Source: a virus (taxonomy: Duplodnaviria > Heunggongvirae > Uroviricota > Caudoviricetes). From it: a stretch of DNA of 12,295 nucleotides. The notes beneath the pieces were generated by a model, which saw only the letters and a program-made list of their open reading frames with translations, ran no database searches and was not told the origin of the DNA. This document shows positions 2,769-12,253 of this stretch, piece by piece. Every line of letters begins with the position of its first letter. Positions within the stretch are counted from its first letter, which is position 1. Location: the IMG/VR virus record IMGVR_UViG_2529292735_000007, one strand, 5' to 3'. The translations under genes and the position numbers were made by a program.

Positions 2769-5591
2769 ATGACGGCAGAGTACATCAGGGACTGGCAACA
2801 ACCGCGCCACGCGGTGGGGCGTGAAGGAACGGGGATCCCCGCTCCTGAATCCGCGCTTTCCTCCTGGCTGGGTGCCTACCGGGTAGAGAACGAGCGCCGC
2901 CAGGAAATGGCTGATGCGGCGTTCTCCGCCACGCCGCTGGGCAACCTGATTAATAAAAGCCTGGACGCACAGAAAAAACAGGACAAAACCATCACACTGG
3001 CAGGAGACGCCAGAAAACAGGCACGCGGCGCGGTGGATGAAGCCATGGCCTCGCTGCGCCTGCTGCCGTCCTATCTGCGCGATCCGCTTATTCGCCACCT
3101 CTCCTTCCTGCGCAAAAAACAGGAAGCCGATCGCCGGAAAGGCAAAAAGAGCTGGCAGGCGGAACGCTATGCACGCGGAACCCTGCGCAAAATATTCGAA
3201 CGTCTGGACCGCACTGATCACCGCTGGCTGACACCGGATTATCGCTCCCTTGCTGGACGCGAACGCCTGGACGATTTGCTTTACCTGCCGCAGCTCAACA
3301 AACACCAGATACAGACGCTGGCCACCATGACGGCGGCGATGTTCAGCAGCACCTTCGAAAAACTCTGCGATGGCTTTGGCGCGACTGATGGCGAACTGAC
3401 CATGGATGTAACGCTGAAGGCGTATCAGATGCTGGCCCGCATGGCGTTACACCTGCACGCCATGCCTCCACATTATGACGCACTGACAACAGACAAAGAC
3501 CGGAGGAACGAACCGGACACAGAGCTGCTGCCGGGCGCAATCCTTCGCCTGACCTGTGCGGAATGGTGGAAACGCAAACTATGGCTGTTACGTTGCGAGT
3601 GGAGAGAAGAACAACTCCGCGCCGCCTGTCTGGTTTCCAGAAAAACATCGCCCTATCTGAGCCAGGACGCGTTAAGCGAGTTTCGCGCACAGCGCGAGAA
3701 AACACGCGATTTCCTGAAAAGTTTCATGCTGGAAAACGAAGACGGGTTCACGATTGATCTCGAGACAGTGTATTACGCGGGAGTAAGTAACCCGGTTCAC
3801 CGTAAGGCAGAAATGATGGCCACCATGAAGGGACTGGAACTTCTGGCCGAAGCCCGTGGCGACAGAGCGGTGTTTCTGACTGTCACCTGCCCGTCAAAAT
3901 ACCACGCAACAACGGAGAACGGTCATCCGAACCCCAAATGGAACGGGGCCACCATGCGCGACTCCAGCGATTACCTGGTTAACACGTTTTTTGCGGCGGT
4001 CCGCAAAAAACTGAACCGCGACGGCCTGCGCTGGTATGGCATCCGCACGGTGGAGCCTCACCATGACGGCACCGTGCACTGGCATATGATGGTCTTTGCT
4101 CATCCGGAAGAAATCGACACCATTGTGTCCCACGTCCGCGATATTGCCATTCAGGAAGACCGCCACGAGCTGGGCAATGATATTACTCCACGCTTTAAAG
4201 TGGAGTATGTCGACGGCTCAAAAGGCACACCAACCAGCTATATCGCGACCTACATCGGGAAAAACCTGGACAGCCGCGCCGTGGATGGCATCGACCCGAA
4301 AACGGGCAAACCACGCGTTGACCACGAAACCGGAAAATCAATGGCCGAGAGCGTGGAGCGCGCCATCGGTTGGGCACGCCTTCACCGGGTCCGCCAGTTC
4401 CAGTTCTTTGGCATCCCCTCCCGTCAGGTGTGGCGTGAACTCCGCCGCCTTGCCAGCCAGATGGCACGCAACCCGGAAGGCCCGCAACGGCTGAAGGATG
4501 ACGCAATGGATGCGGTACTCGCTGCCGCTGATGCCGGATGTTTTGCCACCTACATAGAGAAACAGGGCGGCGTACTTGTTCCACGCAAAGACTACCTGAT
4601 TCGCACCGCCTACGACCTCGCCGATGAGCTGAACGATTACGGCGAACAGAGTGTACAGATTTACGGGATCTGGTCACCACTCATCGGGGAATCCTCCCGT
4701 GTGTGCACGCACCCGGATAACTGGAAGCTGGTAAGACGTAAACCGGAACAGGAAGGCAGCGCCCACGAAAATGGTTTTGACCTTCAGGGCGGCCCTGCCG
4801 CCCCTTGGACTCGTGGCAATAACTGTCCCAGTGTACAGGAAACAGACAACAACGGGACAGAACAGCCGGAAGAACGGCCAGCACCGTGGCCGCAGCTTCC
4901 TGACGGCATTGAAGTGAATGAATGGATGCACTCACTGAAACGGCACGAACGCCGGGCGCTGATGCGTTCGCTGCGTGACAAACAGGCCAAAAACAGCAGC
5001 GATGAAATGCAGAACTGGACGCAGAGCCGCAAACAGCCGCGGCCTTTGCCTGATAACCACGAGTTACTCGCTAAAGAATGGCGGGAGTCTGCTGAATCTC
5101 TCGGCCTGCATATTGGTGAACAGCAGATGCAGCACCTGTTACGGGGCGGCAGTCTGTACGTTGACGGCAGCATCATTGCACCGCAGGGATTTGAAATTGT
5201 ACGCAAACCGGATACCCGCCCGGACAGCCGAATCACGCAGCTCTGGCAGCGCCTGAGCCGTAATCACGGCGTAAGCAGCACGGAGATCCGCCATAACCCG
5301 GTCGCCAGCTATCTGGAACAGCTGGGGGCATCAGACCCTGAAGCCGCCGCACGCCTGGCATCCACACTTCAGCAGGACCAGAACACCATGAAAACACCCG
5401 TTACCGTGCTTTCTGACATGCTGCGCGCCATCCGCGACGCAGAGCACGCACAGAGAATCAGTGAAACCACTGAACGCGCCCGCCGCAAAGCAGACCTGCT
5501 GCGGGGTGGCCTGACCAGTGGAAACAAAAAACAGACAGAAACGGGATTCACAAATCCCGTAAATGAGCAAAAAACGCGCCGCGATATATGA
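2769..5591 (+). CDS. A: rolling-circle replication initiator (HUH-type endonuclease, P2 gpA / phiX174 gpA superfamily I), 940 aa
   Basis: Translation contains EPHHDGTVHWHMMVFAHPEE (HWH at nt 4077..4085) and the paired active-site tyrosines in SYIATYIGKN (Tyr codons 4239..4241 and 4251..4253, Y-x3-Y spacing as in phiX174 gpA YVAKYV); position upstream of the Q-P-O head genes matches P2-like prophage order. Confidence 0.85.
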   Translation: MTAEYIRDWQQPRHAVGREGTGIPAPESALSSWLGAYRVENERRQEMADAAFSATPLGNLINKSLDAQKKQDKTITLAGDARKQARGAVDEAMASLRLLPSYLRDPLIRHLSFLRKKQEADRRKGKKSWQAERYARGTLRKIFERLDRTDHRWLTPDYRSLAGRERLDDLLYLPQLNKHQIQTLATMTAAMFSSTFEKLCDGFGATDGELTMDVTLKAYQMLARMALHLHAMPPHYDALTTDKDRRNEPDTELLPGAILRLTCAEWWKRKLWLLRCEWREEQLRAACLVSRKTSPYLSQDALSEFRAQREKTRDFLKSFMLENEDGFTIDLETVYYAGVSNPVHRKAEMMATMKGLELLAEARGDRAVFLTVTCPSKYHATTENGHPNPKWNGATMRDSSDYLVNTFFAAVRKKLNRDGLRWYGIRTVEPHHDGTVHWHMMVFAHPEEIDTIVSHVRDIAIQEDRHELGNDITPRFKVEYVDGSKGTPTSYIATYIGKNLDSRAVDGIDPKTGKPRVDHETGKSMAESVERAIGWARLHRVRQFQFFGIPSRQVWRELRRLASQMARNPEGPQRLKDDAMDAVLAAADAGCFATYIEKQGGVLVPRKDYLIRTAYDLADELNDYGEQSVQIYGIWSPLIGESSRVCTHPDNWKLVRRKPEQEGSAHENGFDLQGGPAAPWTRGNNCPSVQETDNNGTEQPEERPAPWPQLPDGIEVNEWMHSLKRHERRALMRSLRDKQAKNSSDEMQNWTQSRKQPRPLPDNHELLAKEWRESAESLGLHIGEQQMQHLLRGGSLYVDGSIIAPQGFEIVRKPDTRPDSRITQLWQRLSRNHGVSSTEIRHNPVASYLEQLGASDPEAAARLASTLQQDQNTMKTPVTVLSDMLRAIRDAEHAQRISETTERARRKADLLRGGLTSGNKKQTETGFTNPVNEQKTRRDI

Positions 5592-5636
5592 AGCGCGCAC
5601 AAAACAGGCAAAAACGGGATTTCAGAATCCCGTAAA
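5538..5636. promoter_or_regulatory. parC-like operator/centromere: two copies of a 20-bp palindrome upstream of parM
   Basis: AAACGGGATTcacaAATCCCGTAAA (palindrome 5541..5560) and AAACGGGATTtcagAATCCCGTAAA (palindrome 5614..5633), 73 bp apart centre to centre, flanked by CAAAAAAC-type A-tracts; the first copy lies inside the 3' end of the rep CDS. Confidence 0.45.
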
Positions 5637-5667
5637 CGATTAATTAATCAACATAAGGAAAAGCGAC

Positions 5668-6627
5668 ATGAAAATTTGTATCGACGACGGCTCCACCAAC
5701 ATCAAGCTGGCATGGACTGAGAACGGCGAACGCCGCAACGCCATCAGCCCGAACAGCTTCAAGTCGGAATGGTCTGCGCCGTTCGGTGGCACGCAGCCCG
5801 CGAACTACATGCTTGATGGCGTGCGCTATGGTTTTGATCCGGTCAGCGATCGCTTTGTCCAGACGACCGACACGCAATACCAGTACAGTGATGTGAATGT
5901 CATTGCCATTCATCACGCACTGGTCAAATCAGGCATCACGCCACAGGAGGTGGATGTGGTTGTCACCCTGCCACTGAGCGAGTATTTCGACACAAACGCA
6001 CAGCCGGACATGGCCAACATCAACCGCAAAAAAGCGAACGTTATGCGCCCGGTGGAGTACCAGAACGGCGAAGCATTCACTATCCGTAACGTGCGGGTTA
6101 TGCCTGAATCCATTCCGGCTGGCTTTAAAGCACTGGCTGACATGAGTCCGTTTGAATCCCTGCTGATTGTGGATTTAGGCGGAACCACGCTGGATGTGGC
6201 AAAGGTTCAGGGACAACTGGCAGGTATCAGCCAGGTGTTTTGCGATCCACACGTAGGCGTTTCCCTGATGGCCGATGCCGTACTGTCGGTGATGGCCACT
6301 AACGGTATGCGTACCAGTCACCACATCGCCAATACCATTATCGAACATCGCCATGATGAAGCCTGGTTGCGCCAACACATCCACAATGACGCGCATTACG
6401 CCAGCCTGATGGCGGTTATTCGTGAAAAGGAAGAAACACTGAAACAACGCGTGATCCGCGCGCTGGCGGGTTTTTCGGGTTACGGACGGGTGATGGTTGT
6501 CGGTGGTGGGGCGGAGATTGTGGCACCCGCTATCCGCGAAGCCTGCGGAGTTAATGCGACTTTCATCGCGGACGGGGTGCCACAGTTTGCTCTGGTTAAT
6601 GGGCTGTACGCAATGGACAAGGAGTAA
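5668..6627 (+). CDS. parM: ParM/StbA-family actin-like segregation ATPase (type II partition), 319 aa
   Basis: AAGGAAAA Shine-Dalgarno then ATG; translation matches plasmid R1 ParM as recalled from memory along its length (ICIDDGSTNIKLAW, ISPNSFK, QYSDVNVIAIHHAL, VMPESIPAGF, LLIVDLGGTTLDV, GVSL, VVGGGAE, LVNGLYA). Confidence 0.9.
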   Translation: MKICIDDGSTNIKLAWTENGERRNAISPNSFKSEWSAPFGGTQPANYMLDGVRYGFDPVSDRFVQTTDTQYQYSDVNVIAIHHALVKSGITPQEVDVVVTLPLSEYFDTNAQPDMANINRKKANVMRPVEYQNGEAFTIRNVRVMPESIPAGFKALADMSPFESLLIVDLGGTTLDVAKVQGQLAGISQVFCDPHVGVSLMADAVLSVMATNGMRTSHHIANTIIEHRHDEAWLRQHIHNDAHYASLMAVIREKEETLKQRVIRALAGFSGYGRVMVVGGGAEIVAPAIREACGVNATFIADGVPQFALVNGLYAMDKE

Positions 6628-6631
6628 ACCA

Positions 6632-6946
6632 ATGACGACACCAACCAGACGGATAAGTTTCTATCTGAAGCCCGCCGCCGTCAATAGTGAACGGAAGGCG
6701 TGTAATTACCTCGACAGCCTGCCAGCCTCTGAACGCAGCCGCGCGCAACGCGCGGCCTTTCTGGCCGGGCTGGCACTCATAAAACGCGATCCTGCATTTG
6801 CCTATTGGTTGGCCGAATGGCCGGAAGAAGGAGCTGCGCCAGCAAAGAATAATATTCAGAGTAAATATGCCAGCACACCTGCCACCGGAAGCAATCACAG
6901 CACTAGCGAGATAAGAAAGAACATTCAGTCATTTTTCCCGGAGTGA
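6632..6946 (+). CDS. parR: ParR-like ribbon-helix-helix centromere-binding protein / partition adaptor, about 105 aa
   Basis: ATG at 6632, 4 nt after the parM stop; N-terminus RRISFYLKPAAVNSERKACNYLDSLPASERSRAQRAAFLAGLALIKRDP resembles R1 ParR (RTIAFKLNPDVNQ...LDSIPQGERSRLNRAALTAGLALYRQDP, from memory); the track ORF 6497..6946 is the same frame extended upstream. Confidence 0.75.
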   Translation: MTTPTRRISFYLKPAAVNSERKACNYLDSLPASERSRAQRAAFLAGLALIKRDPAFAYWLAEWPEEGAAPAKNNIQSKYASTPATGSNHSTSEIRKNIQSFFPE

Positions 6947-6965
6947 AAACAGGAGAGGTGCATCT

Positions 6966-7397
6966 ATGGCAACTATTCCCAAAAAATGGTTACAACGCAA
7001 AATCGCAGACCTTGAATCGTGTCGTGAAGACATCCCATTTGGCCTTGATGAAAACGATCACAATATGTTAATCGCACTGAAAATCGCACTCACATCGCTG
7101 GAAGCGAAACCTGTTGCATGGACTGATGATGAGGAACTGCGTGATGTCAAGCAGTATGGTTTCGGTGAGATATTTCAGTGTCCGCCAGATAAATACGCGG
7201 ACCCGCGCCGTGTTATCCCTATGTATCAAGAGCCGCCAGCGCCAGCAGTACCAGATGGGCTGGTTAGAGCGGTGCGTTTCTATGAACAGGTTAAGCGTGA
7301 AAATCCGCCAGCCGAAACCGGAGCATGGAAAGACGCTGTTGACTGGGTGCTCAAAGAGGCTTGCCAAGCTGTAAACATTGGCATCAAAGGAGAGTGA
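6966..7397 (+). CDS. hypothetical protein (143 aa), accessory-locus cargo gene 1
   Basis: ATG at 6966 with AGGAGAGG Shine-Dalgarno 7 nt upstream; contains the motif IALTSLEAKPVAW shared with the gene at 7690; proline-rich middle (YQEPPAPAVPDG). Confidence 0.6.
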   Translation: MATIPKKWLQRKIADLESCREDIPFGLDENDHNMLIALKIALTSLEAKPVAWTDDEELRDVKQYGFGEIFQCPPDKYADPRRVIPMYQEPPAPAVPDGLVRAVRFYEQVKRENPPAETGAWKDAVDWVLKEACQAVNIGIKGE

Positions 7398-7398
7398 T

Positions 7399-7686
7399 AT
7401 GGCAACTTTGCAGGAATTAATCGACCTGACGCCAGAACAGGAAAAAGCGTGGAATCGCCTTGTGAAGGCTGTAAAGGATTTCAGGGCAGCCGGAGGAAAG
7501 TTTTATAGCGTCCTGGACACGCTGAGCGCATACAACGGCGAGCACGTAGCCAGCATTGATAACGATAAGGGCTACCACACTGCAAGCGTTTATATGCCTA
7601 GCATTGATGCGCCAGGGCTAACCAGTTGGGCTGATGATTGGCACGGCATCACGCTGAAAGATGGCGTTGAAGTGGATGAGGACTAA
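7399..7686 (+). CDS. hypothetical protein (95 aa), accessory-locus cargo gene 2
   Basis: ATG at 7399 (1 nt after the previous stop) with AAAGGAGAG Shine-Dalgarno; acidic C-terminus; the track ORF 7378..7686 is the same frame with an alternative upstream start. Confidence 0.55.
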   Translation: MATLQELIDLTPEQEKAWNRLVKAVKDFRAAGGKFYSVLDTLSAYNGEHVASIDNDKGYHTASVYMPSIDAPGLTSWADDWHGITLKDGVEVDED

Positions 7687-7689
7687 CAC

Positions 7690-7950
7690 ATGACAACTTT
7701 CACCGACAAAGAACTGATTAAAGAAATCAAAGAGCGCATAGGTAGCCTGGACGTGAGAGACAATATTGAACGCCGTGCTTATGAAATTGCTCTGGTATCG
7801 CTGGAAGCAGAGCCAGTAGCATGGATGCATGTAAATAACGGCATCGGAATACCAGCAATAACAATGAGTAAAGAGGTTGCAGAGAGTTGGTTATCAAAAG
7901 GCTGGTATGTCCAACCCTTACATCTAGCCCAGCCTGCATCAAAGCTATAG
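7690..7950 (+). CDS. hypothetical protein (86 aa), accessory-locus cargo gene 3, paralogous motif to gene 1
   Basis: ATG at 7690 with GAGGA 7 nt upstream; contains IALVSLEAEPVAW (compare IALTSLEAKPVAW in 6966..7397); followed by a terminator hairpin. Confidence 0.55.
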   Translation: MTTFTDKELIKEIKERIGSLDVRDNIERRAYEIALVSLEAEPVAWMHVNNGIGIPAITMSKEVAESWLSKGWYVQPLHLAQPASKL

Positions 7951-7960
7951 AAATGAGCCA

Positions 7961-7983
7961 AAACGCCCTCTTCCAGGGCGTTT
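7961..7983 (+). terminator. rho-independent terminator closing the accessory operon
   Basis: AAACGCCCT-cttcc-AGGGCGTTT hairpin followed by ATTTCAA; begins 11 nt after the stop at 7950. Confidence 0.5.
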
Positions 7984-7990
7984 ATTTCAA

Positions 7991-8017
7991 TGCACAATAG
8001 TGCACAAATTTGCACAA
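7991..8017. repeat. three direct repeats of TGCACAA at exact 10-bp phasing
   Basis: TGCACAA at 7991, 8001 and 8011 (tgcacaaTAGtgcacaaATTtgcacaa), one helical turn apart, followed by a T7 run; looks like a phased protein-binding array. Confidence 0.6.
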
Positions 8018-8029
8018 TTTTTTTGAACG

Positions 8030-8441
8030 ACTTTTTGCCCTTCCGGCCCGCGGGGCGACTGGATCCGTCAAGGATCCGTGCGTGCACAAAAAAACGCGTT
8101 TTTTCTGCGCGCAGGTGACGGGGGAACAGCCCGCGTTTCAGGGGGTAAATAGCGTTCCCTTAACGATGTCGCAGCGACACGACAGAATGGCCGTATTTCT
8201 CACGCTGAGCGTGAAAAATACGTGAGGGCTTTTGATTTGATGGGGTGAAAGGTAAGGCCGTCAAAATCGCACTGAGGCGGCGAGAACATGCAGTCAGCGC
8301 AGTGGGATTGCGTAAGAGTCTGACCGTCGATGATGGCAATAAGCAGGAAAGCGTCGTGAAATTATCTGACTGATACAGGAGCTGGAGAGTCGGGGCATAA
8401 ATTTTTTATGCCCCGGCGAAGCAGCAGACAAGCGAAGCGCG
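8030..8441. other. non-coding region downstream of portal gene Q; expected location of cos and packaging signals
   Basis: No credible ORF; contains GGATCCGT direct repeats (about 8062..8079), the perfect palindrome AAAAAACGCGTTTTTT (8089..8104) and a GCGGGG-containing stretch (about 8047..8056) only loosely similar to the P2/186 cohesive-end sequence as recalled; the exact cos site could not be identified. Confidence 0.3.
8392..8414. terminator. palindromic hairpin about 28 nt downstream of the Q stop (possible bidirectional terminator)
   Basis: GGGGCATAAA-ttt-TTTATGCCCC perfect inverted repeat; lacks a clean external U-tract on either strand, so the terminator call is tentative. Confidence 0.35.
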
Positions 8442-9461
8442 TCAGGATGTGGGCTGGGTGTCTAACAGTGCGTAAGGGTTAAAGCGGATCACCTCTTCGC
8501 CAAGCCAGTCATTGATGTGCTTCATGGCCTCCATGACGGGCATCAGCTCGTTAATTGCGTAAACCCGCGCGGCCTTCTCCACATCACCAAGCGCACTTTT
8601 TTCGCCCGGCATCGCCCCCATCAGTTGCGGCGGAACGCGGTGCGCAGCCAGCACATCATCACGGGATGCCGCCTTAACATTCATGAACTCATCTTTTGCG
8701 GTGATCTGCTGGAACGGCAAAATTTGCACCCCCTCTTTGCCCCCGTTGGGCGCATGAATGAGCACGTTTTTAAACGCACCACCACCACGTGCACCCTGTA
8801 GCGTTTCTTTCAGGGAGTCCATGCTTTCGCGGTTTACCTGCGCTGCACCGATGTAGATGATGCACCCGGCGTGGGATCCGTTGTCGTAATACAGTTTTCT
8901 GAACATGTCCGCCGAATGAGACAGGCTGGCCGAGAGTAATGCGCCGAGATATTCCGGCATGCCGTAGATTTCCTGGTTAATGTCAGGATTCATCAGGTGG
9001 CACACTTTGCCAGGGCGAAACTGAAACGCGTCCTTGCCATCCTGCACATACCACCATGATTCAAGATCGCTTCCGCGTCGCATGTATTTCGCCAGGGCGT
9101 GCCGTAATTTAAGCGGTTCGCCGAGCATATTACTCCGAAGCTCAAGGAATGCGTTACCGAACACAAAACAGTCCAGCGCCAGCGCCGAGAAATCCTGCCG
9201 GGAAAGCAGCGGGTGCGGGATGTAGCAACCGAGTAATACATTGCGCTTAAAGTAAAGCGCAGACTGATGCCAGGACGTTTGCCGGGCAGCTCTTGCCAGA
9301 CCGTACCAGTCCACCGGGGTTTCATACCACCGCCCGTTATCAGCACAGTACATATTGTCCAGCAGGTCATGCCCGGTCAGGCGATAAGGCCCATCAAATG
9401 TGAATGCACTGAGCGACGATTCATTCCTGAGCGCATCAGCGAGATCAATGCGTGAACTCAT
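8442..9461 (-). CDS. Q: portal protein (P2 gpQ-like), about 339 aa
   Basis: Long minus-strand ORF directly downstream of the terminase large subunit gene and divergent from scaffold/capsid genes, as in P2 (Q-P leftward, O-N rightward); size matches gpQ; start placed at the first ATG (9461..9459, MSSRIDLADAL...), whereas the track ORF extends to 9572 via a non-ATG start. Confidence 0.8.
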   Translation of the reverse strand: MSSRIDLADALRNESSLSAFTFDGPYRLTGHDLLDNMYCADNGRWYETPVDWYGLARAARQTSWHQSALYFKRNVLLGCYIPHPLLSRQDFSALALDCFVFGNAFLELRSNMLGEPLKLRHALAKYMRRGSDLESWWYVQDGKDAFQFRPGKVCHLMNPDINQEIYGMPEYLGALLSASLSHSADMFRKLYYDNGSHAGCIIYIGAAQVNRESMDSLKETLQGARGGGAFKNVLIHAPNGGKEGVQILPFQQITAKDEFMNVKAASRDDVLAAHRVPPQLMGAMPGEKSALGDVEKAARVYAINELMPVMEAMKHINDWLGEEVIRFNPYALLDTQPTS

Positions 9462-9486
9462 GCGCACTTTTTTATTTTTCTGCTCA

Positions 9487-11240
9487 TCAGAACTCCATAA
9501 CCGTGAAACGCTCGTTTTCTCCTTCGCCGCCAATTGGTTCGTTAATGACAGCAAGCATGGTTGCCCACGCAAGGTCGCCGTGGCTGATCCCCCTCGCGCG
9601 GTCCGTTTCGTAAGTGATAAAGCCGCCCGGTGTTTTCACCTTACGCACGGCGTTAAAGGCTGCGACCAGTTCGCGTTCGGCGCGATCGTATTCCCACCGC
9701 CCGGCACGCATTATTTGCAGCATTTTCAGTACCAGCGACCGTTTTGATGACAGCGTGAAGGTGTACGGAATAGCAGCAGGGAAAAACCGTTTCACTATCT
9801 GATAAACAGCCTCCCGTTCCCGCCCGTCACATCAATGCCGATGTGTTCCACGTTGTAGCGACACGTGAACTCTTCAATGACTCTGGCCTGTTCTTCAAAC
9901 TCCAGCCCCTGAACGCGTCGCGTCTCCACCGTTCGAAAACGGCCACCAGGAACAGCCGGAGGGACCACCACGGACACCGCGCCGCTGTCGCCGTTGCCAC
10001 TGCTGCCGTTTGCGTCATACCCAATCCATACCGGGCGATTCCCCATCGGGCGGGGAGCAAAAGGTTTCCAGTCTTTCCAGTCGTCGTATCCGTCAACACC
10101 GCAGCCAATCAGGATATTCAGGTTAAATGCCGATTCCCCTTCGCGGACAAACTCACACATATAGAGATTGAGGAACTCGTCTTCGGTGTTTTCATCACGA
10201 ATTTCGTCGATATCGGTGTGTTTCCAGCCGTGATTAACCACATCTTCCAGCGTGACAATTTGCCGCCACGTCCGGTCAGGGCAGATAAGCCCGTTATGCA
10301 GCGTTTTCCAGTCCACAGAAAAACGCTGGCGTTTATGCGTGGCCTTTTCTCGTTCCAGCGGTCGCCGTTCCAGTAGGCGTATGCCTCGTGCGTTTCGGTG
10401 GATGGCGTGGAGAAGTAGGTGCGCCGCAGTCCGCTGAGGGTTGCCATAGCGCCAGCCACCTTGCGCAGTTCAGCAAAGCGACTAACCCAGAAAAATTCAT
10501 CAAAATAAAAATTGCCCGTATAGGACTGTGCCGACGCAGCAGAAGTGCCGAGAAAATGCAGCTCTGCGCCGTTTGAGAGGATGATTTTATCGCCCCCTTT
10601 CAGCTCCACATCAACTTCAGCCGCGGCCTTCTGAATAATGCTTTTAAACTGGAACGCCTGACGACGCGACGCAGACAAAAAAATCTGGTTACGCTGGTAA
10701 GGTTGCGCCACATCGTCACGCAGCGCCATCAGCAGTGCTTCCTGTGCAAAATACCAGGTCGCCCCAATCTGTCGGGATTTCAGGATCATCCTGTTACGTA
10801 TCCCGGCTTCCCTGCAAAGGGTCAGGGCGTCAAACCAGCCCCGCTGATGCCACTCCAGCCTGCTGATGATTTTTTCCCGCAGTGCGGCAATCTTGTTCCG
10901 GCGTGAAATGATTTTTTAAGTTTTTTTCGCCCCGGCTTTTCTTTCCTGTGGCCGTCGCATCCGGCTGGTCATTATGCAGTTTTTTAAGCTGCCGGGTCAG
11001 CAGGTCTATTTCCTTGAAGTCACCACCTGTTTTATTCTGTTTTTCAGTAAGCTGGATGAGGCGCGCATCGATGGACTGCGTGACACGCTGCACGGGTGGC
11101 GTTTCATCCCACTGATCGCGTTTTTTCCACGCATAAATCGTGTTCGGGTTTATTCCCATCAGACGTGATATTTCTGCGGGCGGATAACCCTGCCAGTAAA
11201 GTTGTCGCGCACGCTGGCGCACAAAAGCGTCCTGAATCAT
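9487..11240 (-). pseudogene. P: terminase large subunit (P2 gpP-like) split into four reading frames by at least three frameshifts
   Basis: Four consecutive minus-strand ORFs (10830..11240, 10118..10789, 9795..10316, 9487..9795) together span about 588 codons; the N-terminal HTH (YWQGYPPAEISRLMGINPNTIYAWKK), ATPase-like core (LSNGAELHFLGTSAASAQSYTGNFYFDEFFW) and nuclease-like IGIDVTGG sit in different frames; junctions lie at homopolymer runs. Confidence 0.75.
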
Positions 11241-11401
11241 TGCTCCCCCTGAGTAATTACAGGAAGATTACCCGCGCGCGAAACCGTTCTCCTTAACCCC
11301 CTGTTCTGGCTGTTTTCTTACAACAAAAGCCCTTTGTATCAGCCTGTTACGCTTTGCCATCATGACTGAAGAACCAGTCAGAGGGGCAAAAACTATGGCT
11401 A

Positions 11402-12230
11402 ATGAAAAAGACATCCCGCAAAAAGTTTCGCGTGGCTGTCTCCGGATCAACTGTTGATGGACGCGAAATCAGCCCGGTACATCTGCGTGAAGCCGCCGAG
11501 AACTTCAACCCGGATGTTTACGCTGCCCGCGTGAACGTTGAGCACTATCTCTCGCCATGCCCGTCAAGCGAATTTTCCGCAATGGGCGATGTCACCGCAC
11601 TGAGTACGGAAGATATTACGGAAGGCCCGCTGGCCGGACGTACTGCGCTGTATGCAGAAATCGAACCGACCGAGCGCATGAAGCAGCTTGTCGCTGACGG
11701 CAAGAAAATCTATTCCAGTATCGAACTGCACCCGCAGTTCTCCGTTAACGGGCGCGCCTATCTGGTCGGGCTGGCGATGACCGACACCCGGCAAGCCTCG
11801 GGCACTGAGCGCCTGAAATTCACGGCACAGCAACGTCAGGCGGTGATGACGTTCAACAGTGTCCAGGGTGAGGCACCGCTTATTTCCGAAGCCATCGAGT
11901 CTGAAATCATCGAAATGGCAGAACAACGCCAGGAAGAAGGCACCCAGTGGTTTAACCGCGTAATGGGGATTATTGGTCGTGGCCGCAAAAGCGGATGACG
12001 CCAGTTTCTCCCGTATTCAGGAAGCGGTGGAAGGCGTCGCAACGTCACAGGCCGACATTATCGACCGTTTTAATGTGCTGGAAACCCGCCATCAGCAGGA
12101 CCGCCAGAAAATCACGTCACTGACCACAGAGCTGGCAGCACTGAAGGAAAAACTGCGCACGCAGGACGGCGATCCGCAGAACCGCTTCACCGCAACAGGT
12201 GCAGCCTCCGACCAGCTGGCTGACTTCTGA
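11402..12230 (+). pseudogene. O: capsid scaffold protein (P2 gpO-like), interrupted by a frameshift near 11990
   Basis: N-terminus MKKTSRKKFRVAVSGSTVDGREIS and internal YLVGLAMTD resemble P2 gpO as recalled (…FRIGVEGDTCDGRVIS…, …YLVGLAVTD…); the frame stops at 11998 and the homologous C-terminal part (AAKADDASFSRIQEAV…) continues in another frame to 12230; an ATG at 11395 with better Shine-Dalgarno spacing (GAGGGG) is out of frame, suggesting a second indel at the start. Confidence 0.7.
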
Positions 12231-12253
12231 TAAGACAAAGGAGCAAATTTTTT

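Follow-up and report, generated by a model that had tools for sequence, protein, structure and literature searches.

The ParMRC partition system of plasmid R1 and the related ParR of plasmid pB171 are the closest described counterparts of two of the genes considered here. A typical parC centromere is an array of repeats upstream of parM that is bound by ParR and overlaps the promoter, and in R1 it consists of ten 11-bp iterons. In this study, we describe a parM-parR gene pair with a candidate centromere, followed by three small genes named O3, O4, and O5, in a viral DNA of 12,295 nucleotides (IMG/VR record IMGVR_UViG_2529292735_000007, Caudoviricetes; this whole analysed stretch is called the window below). 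Other parts of the locus resemble systems known from phages. In the integrated prophage CGP3 of Corynebacterium glutamicum, efficient replication and transport of the viral DNA after induction depend on the actin-like protein and adaptor of the AlpAC system (PMC4446434). In P2-like phages, the interval between the replication gene gpA and the portal gene gpQ is a genuine variable hotspot that has already been catalogued (PMC9122126; NAR 2026, PMC13586616), and about a quarter of the P2-like phages of E. coli have a partition system there (Rousset et al, 2022; PMC9122126). Finally, the small genes that lambdoid phages carry in the exo-xis region undergo early transcription from pL and influence the lysis-lysogeny decision (PMC8614690). 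Published studies of such genes deal with orf60a, orf61, orf63, orf73, ea22, and ea8.5.

The comparisons below favor a two-part explanation, to which we assign a probability of roughly 60%: the partition genes belong to the backbone of P88-like phages and would act on circular phage genomes, and the small genes behind them are early-expressed accessory genes of lambdoid origin. An earlier note, made from the sequence of the window, had described positions 5538-7983 as a single block of accessory cargo, with a partition cassette and a three-gene operon, at the place where P2 carries orf91, tin, and old. Its coordinates are accurate: the replication gene stops at 5591 and Q at 8442, the start at 5538 lies near the first palindrome of the candidate centromere (5541), and 7983 is the end of a hairpin. 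Its placement of the locus also agrees with the gene order of P2, in which A is followed by orf91/tin/old, cos, and Q.

The partition module is a backbone element of P88-like phages

The window represents a P88-like (genus Xuanwuvirus, family Peduoviridae; P2-like) prophage of E. coli. Its segment 5538-8442 is 94-98% identical to phage P88 and relatives across the shared parts and 98.7% identical to the chromosome of E. coli EcPF14, with 91% of the length aligned. The EcPF14 annotation lists, in order, a replication endonuclease, ParM, a plasmid partitioning/stability protein, three hypothetical proteins, the portal, and the terminase. Likewise, parM, parR, and the three small open reading frames (ORFs) of the window all lie on the plus strand between gene A and the portal gene (Table 1).

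ParM is a full-length match to R1 ParM (PDB 1MWK; E=9e-93, residues 2-316), the aligned part including the motifs IDDGSTNIKL and DLGGTTLD, and its ratio of non-synonymous to synonymous substitution rates (dN/dS) relative to EcPF14 is 0.05. The parR gene starts 5 nucleotides (nt) past the parM stop, with the ATG at 6632 that is also annotated in EcPF14; the ORF in the program-made list (6497-6946) is too long. Its product matches the ribbon-helix-helix domain of pB171 ParR (2JD3) over residues 6-61 (E=0.004). The order of candidate centromere, parM, and parR and the family of ParR (PF10784) are shared with R1 ParMRC, and the conserved C-terminal tail of ParR sits where the R1 protein binds ParM. 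Unlike the R1 system, the module is located in an integrating P2-like phage, right after the gene of a rolling-circle initiator, and not on a plasmid.

Scanning IMG/VR with ParM yielded 248 confirmed relatives, and in each of the best 80 ParM is 99-100% identical to that of the window. Of 5426 complete E. coli genomes, 1303 have the segment that runs from the palindromes through parR; its places are chromosomal in 1441 cases and plasmid-borne in 2, and it adjoins a replication endonuclease gene in every E. coli entry listed. ParR is encoded in 82 of 82 loci, and both palindromes are kept in 81 of 81 upstream sequences compared, irrespective of the ParR allele downstream. The partition module is therefore a lineage-fixed backbone of P88-like phages and not variable cargo; since a partition system at the gpA-gpQ locus has already been published, its presence is confirmed but known. 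This divides the block of five genes that the earlier note had treated as one unit. Across the lineage, parM and the palindromes do not vary, parR takes a middle place with its two allele classes, and only the DNA from within or after parR to about 7990 (6947-7990) is variable. Thus, the possibility raised in the note that all five genes might be conserved core genes at this position applies, within the P88 lineage, to two of them and not to the other three.

The two ParR classes are about 50% identical to each other and stand beside a ParM that is 99-100% identical. The window has the rarer class, and most other copies are only about 50% identical to its allele. Nucleotide homology with P88 breaks in parR at approximately 6684, about codon 18. 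Common to both classes are the N-terminal TRRISFYLKP and the C-terminal NIxxxFPE, whereas the helices and the linker between them diverge; the tail, (K/R)NI(Q/R)xxFPE, is kept in all full-length alleles, next to the invariant ParM. The N-terminal strand is the DNA-reading element of ribbon-helix-helix proteins, and the C-terminal tail occupies the position where R1 ParR contacts ParM. Such a pattern would fit one conserved centromere and one conserved motor that are served by exchangeable adaptor bodies. As the alleles share only their ends and homology breaks at about codon 18, the left recombination boundary of the hotspot is placed inside parR.

The candidate centromere consists of two direct repeats of 42 nt (5525-5566 and 5598-5639) that are 81% alike and 73 nt apart. 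Each carries the perfect 20-bp palindrome ACGGGATTnnnnAATCCCGT (8+4+8), the first at 5541-5560 in the last codons of gene A, within its final 50 nt, and the second at 5614-5633; together they lie 35-127 nt upstream of parM, with the second ending 35 nt before it. The palindrome pattern has 2 matches, compared with 0.06 expected by chance. A search for additional half-sites AATCCCGT with at most one mismatch gave no enrichment past the four exact ones. The palindromes were also considered as terminators, which was rejected, as they are terminator-like on the minus strand only and no minus-strand gene lies upstream. The two palindromes may be the binding sites of ParR. The "complete parMRC-like cassette" of the earlier note is accordingly plausible: parM and parR are borne out by their family matches, and parC is a candidate made of two palindromes with a spacing of 73 bp, the first of which falls within the coding end of gene A, and not of a typical iteron array.

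A variable slot between parR and a conserved right boundary

For 57 loci that span both anchors, we compared the segment between the parR stop and the conserved block that begins at 7991. These loci contain 29 gene architectures with inserts of 535-3715 bp, and homology among relatives resumes at 7991 in most cases. The true hotspot thus runs from the parR stop, or from within parR, to about 7990. Its commonest arrangement contains an Ead/Ea22-like protein. Other relatives, with an identical ParM, carry recognized or candidate defense genes in this slot: IetA and IetS (an AAA ATPase and an S8 peptidase; E=4e-89 and 7e-41 with PADLOC) in three loci (L069, L074, and L079), an RmrA-like HTH-M78 peptidase with a PIN protein in two (L044 and L052), and the candidate system PDC-M11A/B in one (L064). 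The description of this position as a variable locus with anti-phage cargo is thereby corroborated.

The locus shares with the P2 orf91-tin-old region its position between A and cos/Q, the rapid turnover of cargo, and the defense systems found in relatives, and it differs in several respects. With tblastn, P2 Old, Tin, and orf91 had no homologue in any part of the window (lowest E 0.15 or worse), which for Old and Tin agrees with the earlier note, and no Pfam match to AAA or Toprim domains was present in it. The cargo runs in the same direction as A, without a promoter of its own that we could find, whereas old and tin are transcribed leftward from their own promoter. In addition, the variable part in the P88-like lineage begins only after or within parR.

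On the right side, positions 7991-8018 contain three TGCACAA repeats (TRF) that overlap a hairpin and T-run at 8000-8015, forming a terminator-like site, which may be a common early-operon terminator or a protein-binding site. No similarity to P2 cos was found in 7951-8460; cos is presumably located within the block 7991-8441.

A further type of cargo was seen in P88 itself and in 10 other loci, where the first gene after parR encodes a 110-residue protein (P88 gp19; L002 4470-4802) with a helical N-terminus and a ClpX-type C4 zinc finger (PF06689, E=1e-17). In ClpX, this zinc finger is the domain that recognizes substrates and adaptors, and the gp19-type protein may for this reason act as a phage decoy or modulator of ClpXP.

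The small genes are related to cassettes of the lambdoid early region

The clearest case is O4. At the amino acid level, it is 99% identical to L0066 of phage 933W, and its identity to a protein from 720R6, a P22-like phage (Lederbergvirus), is 100%. Both phages have the gene between exo/bet and xis/int, where its neighbors are an Ea22-type gene on one side and an EaA/DUF551-type gene on the other. A profile search of 1.84 billion representatives retrieved 123 clusters at 50% identity. Their members are stand-alone proteins of about 100 residues, with the motifs LNG... and ADDxH and with residues that are invariant across the 123 clusters, and in none of these clusters is there a Pfam domain. 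Among phage records, 104 contain O4, most of them from Stx-converting lambdoid phages, and PLSDB has 57 plasmids with the gene (25 conjugative, 27 non-mobilizable, and 5 mobilizable). More distant homologues belong to arrays of early genes of small size, and one of these homologues has a Lar restriction-alleviation gene next to it.

The plasmid copies of O4 are often 100% identical and are carried by enterobacterial plasmids of 56-60 kb and larger. In the 56-kb NZ_CP074935.1 (L091 5164-6268), O4 directly follows a gene of the XF1762 family, and its small-gene block is divergent from the mobilization genes.

O5 comprises the N-terminal and middle modules of EaA/DUF551-type proteins. Over residues 1-44, its identity to the N-termini of 933W L0065 and of the 720R6 DUF551 protein is 86-95%, and homologues that are 81-82% identical along the length of O5 extend further into DUF551 (PF04448) or other C-terminal modules. 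The form of 86 residues recurs, in clusters that are represented on dozens of contigs each. O3 is itself a mosaic, composed of a helical N-terminal module ending in ALTSLEAKPVAW, a swappable middle, and a C-terminal module AVRFYEQVKRENPP..KGE. Alignment with its 1458 homologues shows these modules reshuffled, in some cases fused to DUF551 or Ead_Ea22 domains, and O3 and O5 have related N-terminal modules (E=9e-6).

The combination of the three genes is not fixed. EcPF14 has the same O3 and O5, with the cassette of 933W L0068 in the middle slot instead of O4. At a coverage of at least 80%, the exact O3-O4-O5 trio occurs in 0 of the 5426 complete E. coli genomes; adjacent O4 and O5 were found in two viral contigs. 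In P88, gp20 (L002 4799-5137) looks as if an O3-type protein had been joined to the final eight codons of O5 (...GIKGD-LAQPASKL), which suggests that the O4-O5 segment is deleted in the deposited P88 genome.

Many cassettes of the exo-xis type end in ...KGE-stop, as seen here at 7386-7401, in L0068 and L0069 of 933W, and in Ea22 of 720R6. The junction codons AAAGGAGAG also serve the following gene as its ribosome-binding site, and the junctions ...KGE-stop-ATG are identical in the window and in lambdoid phages. This shared junction probably supplies the short homology for cassette swaps among lambdoid phages, P2-like hotspots, and plasmids. The likeness to the lambdoid genes, namely of O4 to L0066, of the O5 N-terminus to L0065 and other EaA/DUF551-type proteins, and of the EcPF14 alternative to L0068, indicates at the level of sequence that O3-O5 are cassettes of the exo-xis ("ea") early region that were moved by recombination and stand here in a new combination. 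In contrast to their lambdoid counterparts, they are located behind a partition operon in a P2-like phage and not in a pL operon, O5 lacks DUF551, and O3 and O5 fall below the Pfam Ead_Ea22 model.

Searches for known domains and folds gave no assignment of function. ParM and ParR were matched in Pfam. O3, O4, and O5 had no match in Pfam (to E=10, including Ead_Ea22 PF13935 and DUF551 PF04448) or in NCBIfam, and in PHROGs they fell only into families of unknown function; the Ead_Ea22 and DUF551 domains of their homologues lie in parts that are missing from the window proteins. Compared with PDB sequences, the three proteins and a 51-member profile of O4 gave only spurious matches to designed TPR proteins. 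AlphaFold2 models of O4 (33 input sequences, pTM 0.54) and O3 (31 input sequences, pTM 0.42), both with a pLDDT of about 71, had no Foldseek match in the PDB at E<1.

Probable early expression of the small genes and the case for a defense system

All three ORFs are intact and have good ribosome-binding sites. Between O4 and 933W L0066 there are 7 synonymous differences and 1 non-synonymous difference (dN/dS 0.04), and the dN/dS of O5 is 0.06-0.19. The small genes are real and under purifying selection. Their products are all acidic (pI 4.5-5.6) and without enzymatic motifs.

O3 follows parR after a gap of 19 nt, O3/O4 and O4/O5 abut, and the first plus-strand terminators come after O5. In a crude consensus search of 5300-8500, no sigma-70-like promoter was found, against 2.7 expected by chance. 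The position of O3-O5 behind A-parMR and the lack of a detectable promoter of their own lead us to infer early expression. The "three-gene operon" of the earlier note thus holds for three small ORFs devoid of enzymatic motifs and not for a separate transcription unit. Together, the exo-xis origin, the absence of a promoter hit, the close packing behind parR, and the Lar gene next to a distant homologue favor an early accessory role. O3-O5 are probably early-expressed accessory genes and less likely a defense system expressed from the prophage. In this model, they would be made together with the early genes and would bind proteins of the host or the phage, and in this way modulate host physiology or the lysis-lysogeny decision, or counter defense.

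Several points weigh against the two-part explanation. A weak or non-sigma-70 promoter, or a ParR-regulated one at the second palindrome, may be present, given the crudeness of the promoter scan. O5 may be what is left of a longer protein after truncation, as its longer homologues have a C-terminal domain that it does not have. The missing fold matches are weak evidence, as models with a pLDDT of about 71 are of moderate confidence only. The centromere assignment is tentative, since R1 parC has 10 iterons and the window only two palindromes. Moreover, the hotspot location itself argues for defense, because the same slot carries IetAS, RmrA-like plus PIN, and PDC-M11 genes in relatives and because published screens validated systems from it, among them the three-gene system without recognizable domains of Rousset et al (PMC9122126).

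The last point bears on the proposal of the earlier note, read here as an undescribed system of defense or superinfection exclusion that is expressed from the prophage and consists of O3-O5 with or without parMR. The intact state of the small genes and the purifying selection on them speak for it. Nevertheless, we consider it unlikely. None of the five proteins had a match in PADLOC-DB v2 at E<=1, although the same search recovered IetA/IetS, RmrA, and PDC-M11A/B among the relatives' cargo as a positive control, and no effector or enzymatic domain is recognizable in the small proteins. The 19-nt gap behind parR contrasts with that of a relative in which IetA starts 378 nt past parR, leaving room for a promoter, and neither the orientation nor the coupling resembles that of P2 old-tin. 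Finally, O4 and O5 derive from a region with early pL transcription, and a trio whose middle gene is swapped in EcPF14 is not a fixed unit. What is retained of the proposed function in defense, anti-defense, or exclusion is a variable accessory slot, which carries lambdoid exo-xis cassettes here and no defense signature.

A plasmid-type partition module in an integrating phage

Two observations point to extrachromosomal circles as the substrate of ParMR: phages of this type are almost only found integrated, and the module ends the early replication operon. The module may position or separate circular phage genomes. In the proposed mechanism, ParR dimers would bind both palindromes, which lie on either side of the gene A end, and their conserved C-terminal tails would capture ParM filaments, which would push copies of the circular phage genome apart. 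This would take place after infection, induction, or excision, or in a transient carrier state, and would not serve to maintain a plasmid prophage. The favored working model is AlpAC/alpS of CGP3 (PMC4446434), which likewise combines an actin-like protein with a DNA-binding adaptor in an integrated prophage. The two systems have no detectable sequence relationship past the actin fold and belong to different host phyla and phage types.

Rousset et al (2022; PMC9122126) suggested instead that parMRC lets these phages persist as low-copy plasmid prophages. ParM is indeed a full-length protein of the R1 type and is 41-52% identical to thousands of ParM proteins of conjugative plasmids. This reading is quite improbable in view of the 1441 chromosomal and 2 plasmid places of the module in complete E. 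coli genomes. PLSDB contains only 6 records with a ParM at least 99% identical to that of the window, and the matches listed include a plasmid of 272 kb, which is not a phage-sized replicon. In addition, gene A encodes a nicking initiator of the rolling-circle type. Replication of this kind, as known from P2, provides no obvious basis for stable theta-type plasmid maintenance. The broader idea that P88-like phages are usually phage-plasmids was rejected, as the module is nearly always chromosomal and a near-identical ParM is rare in PLSDB.

Feature coordinates and flanking regions

Table 1. Features of the locus and its flanks, with positions in the window.
Feature	Position	Strand	Evidence
Replication initiator gene A (940 aa), left flank	2769..5591	+	PF05840 E=1e-130; phrog_91 "nicking at origin of replication"
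Candidate centromere parC: a pair of 20-bp palindromes, one inside each of two 42-nt direct repeats	5525..5639	.	Repeat and pattern scan
parM, actin-like partition ATPase (319 aa)	5668..6627	+	PF06406 E=2e-82; PF21523 E=1e-68
parR, ribbon-helix-helix centromere-binding adaptor (104 aa)	6632..6946	+	PF10784 E=6e-26
O3, acidic mosaic protein (143 aa)	6966..7397	+	phrog_660, phrog_26213, function unknown
O4, acidic protein (95 aa, pI 4.5)	7399..7686	+	phrog_2821; same gene as 933W L0066
O5 (86 aa), N-terminal and middle modules of EaA/DUF551-type lambdoid proteins, without DUF551	7690..7950	+	Lambdoid homology
Hairpin AAACGCCCT-cttcc-AGGGCGTTT after O5, probable terminator of the cassette	7961..7983	+	Hairpin scan
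Conserved non-coding right boundary block	7991..8441	.	92-99% identical in about 50 loci where the whole block aligns
Portal gene Q, right flank (stop at 8442)	8442..9488	-	PF04860; portal annotation in EcPF14 and P88

The product of gene A is 31% identical to P2 A (E=5e-84). The hairpin behind O5 lies within the variable part of the locus and is absent from most relatives. Upstream of the locus, positions 1783-2402 are only 83% identical to EcPF14, with many indels, between flanks of 88-98% identity. No convincing plus-strand ORF was found in this segment, which may be another variable spot of the early region.

Downstream, the segment 9475-11987, which covers the 5' end of the portal gene, the terminase gene (9488-11240), and the scaffold gene gpO (11402-12238), contains 11 indels of 1-2 bases relative to EcPF14. 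Nearly all of them lie in homopolymer runs, and because of them the terminase is read as four ORFs, gpO is read as two, and the portal start is shifted. Positions 3222-7403 contain no such indels relative to EcPF14, despite a comparable number of homopolymer runs of at least 4 bases (46 versus 50). Either the packaging genes are decaying or the assembly is of poor quality in this segment.

The least probable explanation, under which O3-O5 are selectively neutral remains left by recombination with lambdoid prophages, either illegitimate or through short homology, and functionless passengers of the hotspot, could draw on the patchwork of three modules in O3, the missing DUF551 domain of O5, the resemblance of P88 gp20 to a deletion fusion, the rapid turnover of hotspot contents, and a possible decay of the prophage indicated by the frameshifts at 9475-11987, but it is opposed by the three intact and translatable ORFs, the low dN/dS of O4 and O5, the invariant residues of the O4 family, and the recurrence of the 86-residue O5.

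Implications

The locus is largely ordinary, and its analysis mostly re-discovers published knowledge on the hotspot and the partition system. New are the precise boundaries, with the partition module as backbone and a variable slot that extends from after or within parR to the TGCACAA block at 7991, and the composition of the cargo, from which it is evident that genes are exchanged directly between P2-like hotspots, lambdoid early regions, and plasmids. The modest interest of the locus rests on the function of O4/L0066 and on the role of actin-type partition in an integrating phage. A module with 1441 chromosomal places and 2 on plasmids turns the role of a plasmid partition machine in such a phage into a testable question. 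We would put forward, as a tentative proposal with odds well short of even, that O4, which is kept nearly unchanged in lambdoid phages, a P2-like hotspot, and conjugative or mobilizable plasmids, is with or without O3 and O5 an undescribed establishment or counter-defense factor that acts at cell entry; separately, and with the same reserve, ParMRC may be the first actin-based positioner of replicating phage DNA in a temperate phage of Gram-negative bacteria. If O4 were indeed such a counter-defense or establishment factor, this would provide a function for a gene that is present in most Stx2a phages.

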